30,466 nt of DNA from an uncultured archaeon. Its GTDB lineage: Archaea > Nanohalarchaeota > Nanosalinia > Nanosalinales > Nanosalinaceae. Shown in pieces: positions 16,014 to 18,897 of the stretch (positions are counted from its first letter, which is position 1; each line of letters starts with the position of its first letter). The stretch covers positions 6,023 through 36,488 of the forward strand of contig CAZKLW010000001.1 of assembly GCA_964553995.1 (NCBI GenBank), given 5' to 3'. Under the pieces are notes generated by a model, which had not been told where the DNA came from, did no database searches, and saw nothing but the letters and a program-made list of their open reading frames with translations. The translations under genes were made by a program, and so were the position numbers.

Positions 16014-18203
16014 ATGTCGGACGACAAAGAGCTTGAGGCAATAAAGAGTGTAATCGAAGACCCGGAGCATATCCGGAATATAGCGATCGCGGCACACATC
16101 GACCATGGAAAGACTACCCTAACAGACAATCTTCTGGCTCGCGCGGGAATGATATCGGAGAAGCTCGCGGGAGAACAGCGCTTCATGGACTTCGATGACC
16201 AGGAAGCCGAGCGAGGTATCACAATCTATTCCGCCAACATCTCGATGGTCCACGAGTTTGACGGTGACGACTACCTGATCAACCTCATAGACACTCCAGG
16301 CCACGTAGACTTTGGAGGCGACGTTACAAGGGCGATGCGGGCAGTTGACGGTGTAGTAGTCCTTGTAGATGCTGTCGATGGGGTCATGCCGCAGACCGAA
16401 ACAGTCATGAAACAGGCGTTGAACGAAGGCGTCAAGCCAGTACTCTTCATCAACAAGGTCGACAGGTTGATAGAAGAGATGCAGCTGACGCCGGAAGAAA
16501 TGCAGGAAAGGTTCCAGAAGATAATAAGAGAGGTAAACACCGCACTACGGAAATACGCTGACGAGGAAACCGCTGAAGAATGGAAGATGAGCGTCCAGAA
16601 CGGAACGGTCGCATTTGGATCAGCCCTCAAGAACTGGGCGATCTCCATGCCCTACATGAAGGAGACCGGGATCTCGTTTGGAGACATAATCGAAAGAGTC
16701 AACGATGGCGACCACGAAGGTCTCGCAGGAGATGCGCCTATCGAGGAAGTCGTCCTCGACATGGTTGTCAAACACCTCGTGAACCCTCAGGAGGCCGCGG
16801 ACCGCAGAGTACCCGCTATCTGGCCGGGAGAAGCTGACTCAGAAGTCGGCAAATCCATGGCAGAACAGGACGCCGGAGGCCCTCTAGTGGGGGTCGTGAC
16901 AAACGTTGAGGATGATGAACATGCCGGCACGATTGTTACGGCGCGTCTTTTCTCCGGAACGATAGAGGAGGGAGACGAGCTTTACTCAATCGGTTCCAAG
17001 AAGACTGAAAGGGCGCAGCAGGTAGGTATCTACTCGGGACCCAGGAAACTAATGACAGACTCCGTTCCCGCGGGAAACATCGTCGCAATTACGGGACCGG
17101 ACTTCTCAACAGGAGAGACCTTTATCCGGGAAGGAGAGGAAGAGATCACGCCATTCGAGCAGATCGAGCACGTCTTCGAACCTGTCGTAACCAAGTCTAT
17201 CGAACCAAAGAGAACCTCTGACCTTCCGAAGCTTATCGAGGCTCTAAGGAAAAGGGCAAAGGAAGACAATACCATCAAGGTTGACATCGACGAGGAGACC
17301 GGCGAAACACTTGTCAGCGGTCTTGGAGAGCTCCACATCGAGGCAAAAGTGGAGAGGTACCTGGATGAACAGGGGATAGATATTGACGTATCCGAACCTA
17401 TCGTTGTCTTCCGTGAAGGAATTAAAGAAAAGAGCGACCACCACATGGGCAAGTCGCCCAACCGCCACAACAAGCTTGAGATCTCGGTCGAGCCTCTCGA
17501 AGAATCCACAAGGAAGTTCCTGAAAGAAGATTACAAGGAGGTCAAGATGCAGGCAGACCAGGACCGGGAGATAGTGGATGCGATGATCGATGCGGGAATG
17601 GACAGTGATGACGCGGAAAACGTGATGGAAGTATACGAGGAAAACGTGTTCATCAACGCCTCAAGAGGTATCAAGAACCTGCGTGAGATCCGGGAGTACC
17701 TGGTGGATGCGTTCAAGGAGTTCTGTGACGAGGGACCCTTGGCGGGAGAACCCGTAATAGGTTTCGCGGTAAAGCTACATGACGCGAAGCTCCACGAGGA
17801 TGCGATTCACCGTGGGCCGGCGCAGATGATGCCCGCAACGAAGGACGCTATAAGGAACGGTTTCCTGAATTCGAGCCCGAGACTTATCGAGCCGAAGCAG
17901 ATACTGAGGATCGACACCCCTTCGGATACAATGGGAGACGCCATGACAGAGGTAAACAACCGCAGGGGCGACATCATCGACATGGACGAAGAGGGAGATT
18001 CCGCGGTCATCAAGTGCAAGCTACCCGTAGAAGAACTTTTCGGCTTCGAAGCCGCGCTCAAGAGCGCTACAGGTGGAAAAGGATTCTTCTCACTCATCGA
18101 CCTGATATTCGAGCCGATACCGATGAATCTCCAGGAAGAAAAGATCATGGAGATCCGGGAACGAAAGGGAATGAAACAGGAGATGCCTGAGCCCGGAGAG
18201 TAA
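16014..18203 (+). CDS. fusA: Translation elongation factor aEF-2
   Basis: AHIDHGKTT, RGITI, DTPGH and NKVD. The diphthamide loop HEDAIHRGPAQ is intact (target His codon at 17808-17810). Confidence 0.99.
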   Translation: MSDDKELEAIKSVIEDPEHIRNIAIAAHIDHGKTTLTDNLLARAGMISEKLAGEQRFMDFDDQEAERGITIYSANISMVHEFDGDDYLINLIDTPGHVDFGGDVTRAMRAVDGVVVLVDAVDGVMPQTETVMKQALNEGVKPVLFINKVDRLIEEMQLTPEEMQERFQKIIREVNTALRKYADEETAEEWKMSVQNGTVAFGSALKNWAISMPYMKETGISFGDIIERVNDGDHEGLAGDAPIEEVVLDMVVKHLVNPQEAADRRVPAIWPGEADSEVGKSMAEQDAGGPLVGVVTNVEDDEHAGTIVTARLFSGTIEEGDELYSIGSKKTERAQQVGIYSGPRKLMTDSVPAGNIVAITGPDFSTGETFIREGEEEITPFEQIEHVFEPVVTKSIEPKRTSDLPKLIEALRKRAKEDNTIKVDIDEETGETLVSGLGELHIEAKVERYLDEQGIDIDVSEPIVVFREGIKEKSDHHMGKSPNRHNKLEISVEPLEESTRKFLKEDYKEVKMQADQDREIVDAMIDAGMDSDDAENVMEVYEENVFINASRGIKNLREIREYLVDAFKEFCDEGPLAGEPVIGFAVKLHDAKLHEDAIHRGPAQMMPATKDAIRNGFLNSSPRLIEPKQILRIDTPSDTMGDAMTEVNNRRGDIIDMDEEGDSAVIKCKLPVEELFGFEAALKSATGGKGFFSLIDLIFEPIPMNLQEEKIMEIRERKGMKQEMPEPGE
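18173..18195 (+). repeat. Direct repeat copy 1 (EF-2 3' end)
   Basis: GAAACAGGAGATGCCTGAGCCCG is 22/23 identical to 18832-18854. Confidence 0.85.
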
Positions 18204-18206
18204 TCT

Positions 18207-18521
18207 TTAATCCCTCTCTTCCAGATCATCCAGCAGGTTGTAAAGGCTCTTCCCGTACTCTATTTCATTCCTGTGAAATATCTCCAGAACAATCACTTCA
18301 TTATTGGCTTCGGTGAAGAAAACCCGGTGGTTCAGATTCTCGGTCTTTAGATCCAGCTTGTCGTGAGGTCGACCATGCTCGTCATAAACGCAGCTGTAAG
18401 AACCATGATTGTAGAAATCTTCCTCCGCCACCCCAGATATAATCTGCATGATTTCCTCCGTCACTTCCTGGGAAAAACTCTCAAGTGATTCAATAGCTGC
18501 TTCAGTGAACCTGTAGCTCAT
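18207..18521 (-). CDS. RelE/ParE-superfamily toxin
   Basis: 104 aa with YRFTEAAIESL ... HRVFF...VIVLEIFHR. It overlaps the antitoxin stop (ATGA-type coupling at 18518-18521). Confidence 0.7.
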   Translation of the reverse strand: MSYRFTEAAIESLESFSQEVTEEIMQIISGVAEEDFYNHGSYSCVYDEHGRPHDKLDLKTENLNHRVFFTEANNEVIVLEIFHRNEIEYGKSLYNLLDDLEERD

Positions 18522-18763
18522 TCCAGAACCCGTTCTCTTGCTTCGTCCGGACTGTAGGTTCTACCATCCCGAACATCTTCCATCGCGATCTCCAGTCTCT
18601 CCACGGTTCTACCTCTAATAACGCTGGCTTCAAGCTCTTCATTCGCCATCTTCAAACGTAACGCATCCCGTAGCAGTTCCGACTTCGAGTTGTAGCGACC
18701 CTTTTCAATCTCCGACTCCACAAACTCTCGCAGCTCCTTCGGAAGATCAACGCTTACAGCCAT
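18518..18763 (-). CDS. Ribbon-helix-helix antitoxin (ParD-like)
   Basis: MAVSVDLPKELREFVESEIEKGRYNSKSELLRDALR is a typical RHH pattern (G.Y.S.SE..R.ALR). ATG at 18763. Confidence 0.85.
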   Translation of the reverse strand: MAVSVDLPKELREFVESEIEKGRYNSKSELLRDALRLKMANEELEASVIRGRTVERLEIAMEDVRDGRTYSPDEARERVLE

Positions 18764-18770
18764 ATCCAAT

Positions 18771-18796
18771 AACTATTATTGAAATTTTAAATAGTT
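18771..18796 (-). promoter_or_regulatory. TA promoter/operator: inverted repeat AACTATT-N12-AATAGTT overlapping a TATA box
   Basis: Perfect 7-bp inverted repeat at 18771-18777 and 18790-18796. TTTAAAA on the minus strand lies about 21-27 nt before the antitoxin ATG. Confidence 0.55.
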
Positions 18797-18831
18797 TTGA
18801 TGCCTATGGCTCCAAAGACATATGAGCCGAC

Positions 18832-18854
18832 GAAACAGGAGCTGCCTGAGCCCG
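18832..18854 (+). repeat. Direct repeat copy 2 (displaced EF-2 3' end)
   Basis: GAAACAGGAGCTGCCTGAGCCCG followed by AGGAATAG reads KQELPEPEE*, against KQEMPEPGE* in EF-2. Confidence 0.85.
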
Positions 18855-18865
18855 AGGAATAGACC

Positions 18866-18897
18866 CATTCCGGCGCCAAGCGCGGAGCGTCGGAATG
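18866..18897 (+). terminator. GC-rich hairpin after the displaced EF-2 end
   Basis: CATTCCGGCGC / GCGTCGGAATG forms an 11-bp stem (one G-U pair) with a 10-nt loop. Confidence 0.4.

Follow-up and report, generated by a model that had tools for sequence, protein, structure and literature searches.

We analysed a window of 30,466 nucleotides from an uncultured nanohaloarchaeon of the family Nanosalinaceae, in which a small toxin–antitoxin (TA) cassette lies between the genes for the elongation factors EF-2 (aEF-2/fusA) and EF-1alpha (tuf). The window (G000:C1:6023-36488) belongs to a metagenome-assembled genome (MAG) of 702 kb that is 82% complete; the genomes of its family relatives measure 0.6–1.7 Mb, mostly about 1 Mb. 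Its acidic proteins and small size also fit a nanohaloarchaeon. The EF-2 gene, at 16014–18203 on the plus strand, is intact and encodes 729 residues with the Pfam domains GTP_EFTU, EFG_III, EFG_IV and EFG_C, and the protein is 82–90% identical to EF-2 of family members. It now ends in ...KQEMPEPGE* with a TAA stop (tail letters ...KGMKQEMPEPGE). Convergent to it, on the minus strand, is a RelE-family toxin gene at 18207–18521 (104 residues), whose stop codon lies 3 nt away from the EF-2 stop. A ribbon-helix-helix (RHH)/ParD-type antitoxin gene at 18518–18769, also on the minus strand, lies upstream of the toxin gene and overlaps it by 4 nt (ATGA, 18518–18521); its product has 83 residues if translated from a TTG, or 81 from an ATG at 18763. 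The adjoining region 18770–18831 (minus strand) forms the right end of the insert and is a putative promoter/operator of the cassette, as judged from an A/T-rich TATA-like box and a CCAATAA..TATT palindrome read from the sequence. The window and the related cassettes of genomes G009 and G068 have in common the motif that adjoins the antitoxin start. Beyond this region follow a second copy of the EF-2 3′ end (18832–18863, plus strand), which encodes KQELPEPEE and a TAG stop, and a hairpin at 18866–18897 (plus strand) with a stem of 11–12 bp including one G–U pair (–17.9 kcal/mol, z –2.5). A tuf promoter box at 18924–18943 (plus strand; AAACCCTTTTTAAAGTTTA), conserved at a distance of about 40 nt from the tuf ATG across 19 genomes of the family, precedes the EF-1alpha gene itself (18981–20246, plus strand, assigned by Pfam).

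The cassette is bracketed by a direct repeat. Positions 18173–18202 and 18832–18861 agree at 26 of 30 nucleotides with a spacing of 659 nt, and the core of the repeat at 22 of 23. The left copy (18173–18203, plus strand) consists of this 23-nt core and the end (GE, TAA) that now terminates EF-2. With up to two mismatches permitted, these two are the only copies in the 702-kb genome. The right copy translates in frame as ...TKQELPEPEE* up to its TAG stop, and it is identical to the EF-2 tail at 27 of 33 positions, compared to best values of 14–22/33 in 25 other fusA–tuf gaps. The Smith-Waterman z of the repeat is 12.3 in the window and at most 2.8 in 20 other filled gaps. Outside the core, about 2 of 8 nt match on the 5′ side and 4 of 8 nt differ on the 3′ side. 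The junctions were checked independently on Logan assembled contigs from runs X1 and X2. The X1 contig covers 17830–18846 with no differences. The X2 contig covers 18300–19096 and has an A at position 18842, with which the core becomes 23/23 and the relic reads KQEMPEPEE; one difference is listed across the ~680 nt of TA pair, relic and spacer, out of seven in total. The other six seem to fall within the first 116 nt of tuf, and the cause could be either a boundary of recombination close to where tuf begins or a contig of mosaic origin. A preliminary description of this stretch had pointed out the 23-nt repeat (22/23), the alternative EF-2 C-terminus KQELPEPEE* in its right copy, the 11-bp hairpin that follows and the 3-nt distance between the ends of toxin and EF-2, and all four are found here at the positions given.

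Comparison with relatives identifies the right copy as the native end of EF-2. The EF-2 tree places the window together with G010, G007 and G023 (support 100/98), and EF-2 of these three clade-mates ends in ...PEPEE* throughout, with TAG as the stop codon in G007 and G023. The tail PEPGE* of the left repeat is unlike this clade tail. None of the three genomes carries the TA pair. The stop of the relic lies 117 nt from the tuf ATG and 60 nt from the conserved promoter box, a geometry that agrees with genomes having short fusA–tuf gaps of 139–162 nt. Among 20 family genomes in which fusA and tuf are contiguous, the gap is about 130–162 nt in four and 420–3100 nt in 16; joining two overlapping contigs of G010 gives one more short gap, the fifth, of 109 nt. 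A strong hairpin directly 3′ of the EF-2 stop is also present in the empty-site genome G002 (L004), and no hairpin comparable to 18866–18897 was found 3′ of the window's present EF-2 stop. Because the PEPEE tail, the TAG stop, the spacer geometry and the hairpin all fit the clade-mates or the empty sites, we take the right copy to be the native EF-2 end, now a relic, and the hairpin to have once stood 3′ of the native stop. The insert is therefore 18173–18831, and it carries a surrogate EF-2 end. The last 8 nt of EF-2 have been replaced (EE-TAG to GE-TAA), and the protein remains full length.

The empty site is seen in G010, which belongs to a different genus from the window. Its contig C7 begins inside EF-2, runs through ...KGMKQEIPEPEE to the stop (KQEIPEPEE*) and continues over the 109-nt spacer with a promoter box into tuf. 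The nucleotide match to the relic is 25/33. The start of G010:C7 (L089) and the end of G010:C39 (L090) overlap by 55 nt and the break lies within the EF-2 tail; there may be strain heterogeneity at exactly that site in the sample. A second copy of the EF-2 tail was found in no relative examined (25 other gaps by identity and 20 filled gaps by Smith-Waterman), and hence in no relative that lacks the TA pair, the situation that the preliminary description had named as decisive against its proposal. That proposal was an insertion into the 3′ end of EF-2 with a swap of its tail, together with a predicted empty site of relic tail, hairpin and tuf. Both parts have held up, as the clade-mates share the relic tail and G010 is empty. 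We regard a recent insertion with exchange of the EF-2 tail as very probable.

For the route of insertion we lean slightly towards a single att-like crossover within the core, made without a recombinase encoded by the cassette itself. This is preferred because the cores are near-identical but the flanks are unlike on both sides, as at attL/attR. Copies from fill-in target-site duplication start identical and later changes scatter, so we do not regard the repeat as one. The copies resemble hybrid att sites and not a fill-in duplication. Like attL/attR, the repeats take in the 3′ end of a target gene that is kept intact, and an empty site with a single copy of the putative att sequence exists in a relative (G010). 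The 659-bp unit (18173–18831) would comprise a 31-nt stretch that imitates the end of EF-2 with its stop, a 3-nt spacer, the toxin, the antitoxin and its own promoter/operator. One reciprocal crossover within the 23–26 nt of identity common to the incoming DNA and the host EF-2 tail would have integrated it, in an event akin to attP × attB recombination of a circular or circle-like element. The incoming unit would have supplied the new end (GE, TAA) and so left EF-2 intact, and the native end (EE, TAG), the hairpin and the 117-nt spacer would have been displaced 659 nt downstream, where the former coding end is presumably a non-coding relic. The unit would thus behave as a cis-mobilisable or decayed integrative element. 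Candidate catalysts are a trans-acting tyrosine recombinase, the recombinase of a larger element that has since been deleted, or host homologous recombination acting at minimal homology. Once in place, the antitoxin would repress the operon and neutralise a ribosome-dependent mRNA endonuclease, as in an ordinary RelBE-type module, and loss of the cassette via the 23-nt repeats would be penalised by the addiction effect. Transcription arriving from EF-2 would be convergent with the TA operon, and read-through transcripts would be antisense to it.

The repeat and its surroundings can also be read in other ways. The source is a metagenome MAG, and the repeat might be an artefact, either a chance similarity or an assembly chimera. 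The repeat z of 12.3 and the independent contigs of two runs that span both junctions leave this next to no probability, and we consider it close to refuted. Transposition of an insertion sequence (IS) element, a casposon or another element that makes a staggered cut would also leave an insert flanked by direct repeats, in that case a fill-in target-site duplication, and in Thaumarchaeota the 3′ end of EF-2 is a target of family 1 casposons (PMC6563490, PMC6614799). Neither terminal inverted repeats nor a transposase or Cas1 were found, and four differences cluster in the last 8 nt although a true duplication begins identical, which makes transposition highly improbable. Cas1 occurs in 3 of 50 family genomes, and in two of these, the complete genomes G006 and G013, it is far from EF-2. 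A casposon remnant was also considered and rejected, on the grounds that there are no inverted repeats, that the genome has no Cas1 gene and that Cas1 of G006 and G013 is distant from EF-2. The TA pair could instead have been inherited vertically beside the EF-2 3′ end for a long time and lost from most lineages, with the relic held similar to the live tail by selection or gene conversion. At least three clades of the family do have this TA subfamily at the corresponding position. However, the TA proteins are 45–64% identical between clades, and an identity of 22–23/23 could not have survived so long in a non-coding relic; the sisters G007, G023 and G010 are without the pair, with a clean empty site in G010, and G009 and G068 are without a relic. 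Long residence is therefore very unlikely.

The main rival is import facilitated by homology, the donor being a relative in which this TA pair already followed EF-2. Here the left crossover would lie somewhere within the conserved EF-2 gene, and the right end would have been joined illegitimately to the recipient 31 nt upstream of its EF-2 stop, duplicating the tail by accident. The three closest toxin homologues (45–52% identity; G009, G068 and the metagenome contig L077) all stand directly after EF-2 in convergent orientation, and an orphan copy of the antitoxin is present in the G019 gap. Two species of one genus differ in the cassette between otherwise syntenic EF-2 and GT4/tuf: G009 (L035) has EF-2, TA, GT4 and tuf, G024 (L033) has EF-2, a short-chain dehydrogenase (SDR), GT4 and tuf, and their homology stops 4 nt past the EF-2 stop. 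The genes on either side of the fusA–tuf gap are among the most conserved in archaea and make ideal homology arms. The concentration of X2 differences in the start of tuf, with one in the TA-relic-spacer stretch, points weakly in the same direction, as contigs can be mosaics. Import nevertheless leaves unexplained why 23 nt of complete identity between the two tails give way to 4 differences in 8 nt, and why the relic starts exactly where the identity starts. The 3′ part of the window's EF-2 is nearest to G007/G023 and no foreign tract is visible in it, although the divergence is too high for a firm test; compared with 20 relatives by sliding identity and in bins of 20 codons, EF-2 is close to saturation at synonymous sites. 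A G009-like stretch in the last 54 nt of EF-2 (3 differences vs 9) fails multiple testing. Import accounts for the association with EF-2 and does not account for the fine structure of the repeat, and we consider it unlikely.

Several observations weigh against insertion by an att-like crossover. It is a single case, from a MAG that is 82% complete. No PF00589 or Cas1 match was found in the cassette, the window or this genome, and the scanned open reading frames (ORFs) of the window contain no integrase or transposase domains; the preliminary description had likewise spoken of a cassette of ~660 bp with no integrase, and it measures 659 bp. That description had also proposed a search for circular or excised forms and for the repeat core next to tyrosine recombinases in viruses or plasmids, and neither search gave support. 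The Logan contigs of X1 and X2 hold no circle, deletion joint or same-population empty allele, and the core 22-mer is absent from the viral and metagenome contig collections and was found beside no integrase. Its single match among genome contigs, in a Bradymonadia MAG gene whose product resembles cytochrome oxidase subunit II, is probably due to chance. Finally, the closest other cassettes (G009, G068) are without a tail relic, and a conserved att site is therefore not supported. Tyrosine recombinases are present in 34 of the 50 family genomes, and one of them could plausibly have acted in trans; among the listed PF00589 matches, none falls in a located fusA–tuf gap.

The TA pair itself is, by sequence and model, a RelBE-like module with a ParD-type RHH antitoxin in which both genes are intact. 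The antitoxin matches PF03693 (ParD_antitoxin) with 31.9 bits (cut-off 21) and PF01402 (RHH_1) with 22.9 bits (cut-off 20.5). The toxin scores 17 bits with Pfam ParE_toxin, under the cut-off of 23, and a profile of 23 family homologues matches Methanocaldococcus jannaschii RelE3 (3bpq) at 1e-4 as well as Escherichia coli RelE and Pyrococcus horikoshii aRelE. Residues R66, R84 and Y89 are invariant across the 23 homologues, and the profile alignment places them opposite the YR and R..Y motifs of E. coli RelE. We take them to be the counterparts of the E. coli RelE active-site residues R61, R81 and Y87. The AF2 model of the toxin (pLDDT 88, pTM 0.80) has two N-terminal helices followed by an antiparallel sheet, the RelE/ParE fold, and its best Foldseek matches are RelE, HigB and YoeB with probability 1.0 and TM 0.6–0.76. 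ORFs, Pfam, profile and fold thus agree with the first assignment of the pair as an RHH antitoxin and a RelE/ParE-like toxin on the minus strand between EF-2 and EF-1alpha. The module shares the fold, the Arg/Arg/Tyr residues and the upstream, overlapping antitoxin gene with E. coli RelBE, M. jannaschii RelBE3 and P. horikoshii aRelBE, but its antitoxin, unlike theirs, is of the ParD/CopG RHH type. Sequence identity of the toxin to solved RelE structures is just 9–19%, and its activity is a predicted one.

The toxin subfamily is rare, with 11 matches among 1.84 billion cluster representatives. Searches of metagenome and viral contigs, plasmids and phages gave no close relatives elsewhere; a word-index protein search returned the query itself alone and exact-protein look-ups the run X1 contig alone. 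The cassettes of the three closest toxin relatives lie 9–82 nt from the EF-2 stop, and neither these (G009, G068, L077) nor the gap of G019 shows a tail relic. The association of the toxin with EF-2 fits either a preference for the site or homologous spread via the flanking conserved genes. The fusA–tuf spacer is an insertion hotspot across the family, and its cargo is unrelated between genomes: a sulfatase, an SDR, a methyltransferase, a GT4 glycosyltransferase, NUDIX, FIST, VanZ-like and PadR proteins, vapBC and ORFs without a family match. In G001 (G001:C1:717802-826614), fusA and tuf are ~106 kb apart on opposite strands, and the spacer is therefore also a rearrangement breakpoint there.

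TA pairs are found at other loci as well. A second RelE/RHH lineage (L048-L052, L054, L065; in G058, G052, G022, G056, G008, G057 and G009) is 67–89% identical at the DNA level across five genera. Its members share a block of only ~570 nt, made up of the operon and ~40 nt of promoter, with unrelated flanks, and TA pairs therefore move as minimal units in the family. A 16-nt repeat around the G022 pair was rejected as a boundary, as it reaches a z of 4.4 and has one of its copies within the block common to other genomes. In a sister family, another RelE/RHH pair (L060:1258-1978, on G035:C44) is flanked by a direct repeat of 32–33 nt whose copies are spaced by 689 nt (z 16.6). The island that contains it is specific to G035 and adjoins tRNA-Glu and a gene for an MNT-type nucleotidyltransferase. 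The ORFs tested there gave no recombinase domain, and an ORF next to the tRNA-Glu that looked integrase-like by eye is given no support by Pfam. An empty site for this pair was not found, its relatives having just the tRNA in common. A decayed copy of the TA subfamily found in the window is seen in G056:C20 (L069:1498-1836), where an ORF of 112 residues fuses the N-terminus of the antitoxin to a toxin fragment, with no EF-2 within ~1.5 kb.

The cassette is embedded in an archaeal core cluster that runs within the window through rpoB, nusA, rps12, rps7, fusA (EF-2), tuf (EF-1alpha) and rps10, then rps13, rps4, rps11 and rpoD. Two further insertions into this conserved cluster are an acidic ORF of 127 residues without a Pfam match at 15563–15946, between rps7 and fusA, and an ABC1 kinase gene at 12820–14433, between nusA and rps12.

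Events of this kind are already known. In Thaumarchaeota, EF-2 is the commonest target of family 1 casposons, and their site-specific integration into its 3′-distal region has been shown in vitro (PMC6563490, PMC6614799). In the element NitEve-E2, described in the same survey, the last 8 nt of the target gene including TAG are replaced by element sequence with TAA (PMC6563490). The insert described here has the same target region, the EF-2 3′ end, in another archaeal phylum, and as in NitEve-E2 the last 8 nt with the stop are replaced by element sequence, TAG becoming TAA. Unlike the casposons and NitEve-E2, it has no casposase, inverted repeats or integrase, is about 10–50 times smaller and has a 23-nt core. 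In streptococci, cis-mobilisable elements (CIMEs) are remnants that lack a recombinase, are flanked by att sites and lie at the 3′ ends of rpsI, rpmG, rplL and fda (PMC7563491). With these the insert shares direct repeats of att type, the lack of a recombinase gene, a location in the 3′ end of a gene that is essential, related to translation and left with its frame intact, and a small cargo. It differs from CIMEs in being archaeal (Nanohaloarchaeota) and only 659 bp long with one TA pair, in having no known partner among integrative conjugative or mobilisable elements (ICE/IME) and no cognate integrase, and in that its mobilisation is predicted only. One could go further and picture a lineage of RelBE cassettes that homes to the EF-2 stop region by using the tail mimic as its attachment site, spreads between genera with no recombinase of its own as a "micro-CIME" and helps to make the hotspot, but we find this doubtful. 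What is new is the DPANN host and the 659-bp unit with a single TA pair and no recombinase gene.

The movement of TA pairs can rarely be traced, because the junctions of such insertions decay; here they are fresh enough for a likely att-like crossover to be read in the tail of an essential gene. After the thaumarchaeal casposons, this makes a second archaeal phylum in which the 3′ end of EF-2 serves as an integration site. The system is also small enough for direct assays of integration and excision. The hypervariable slot between EF-2 and EF-1alpha, in very small genomes, is relevant to gene gain and exchange among DPANN archaea.

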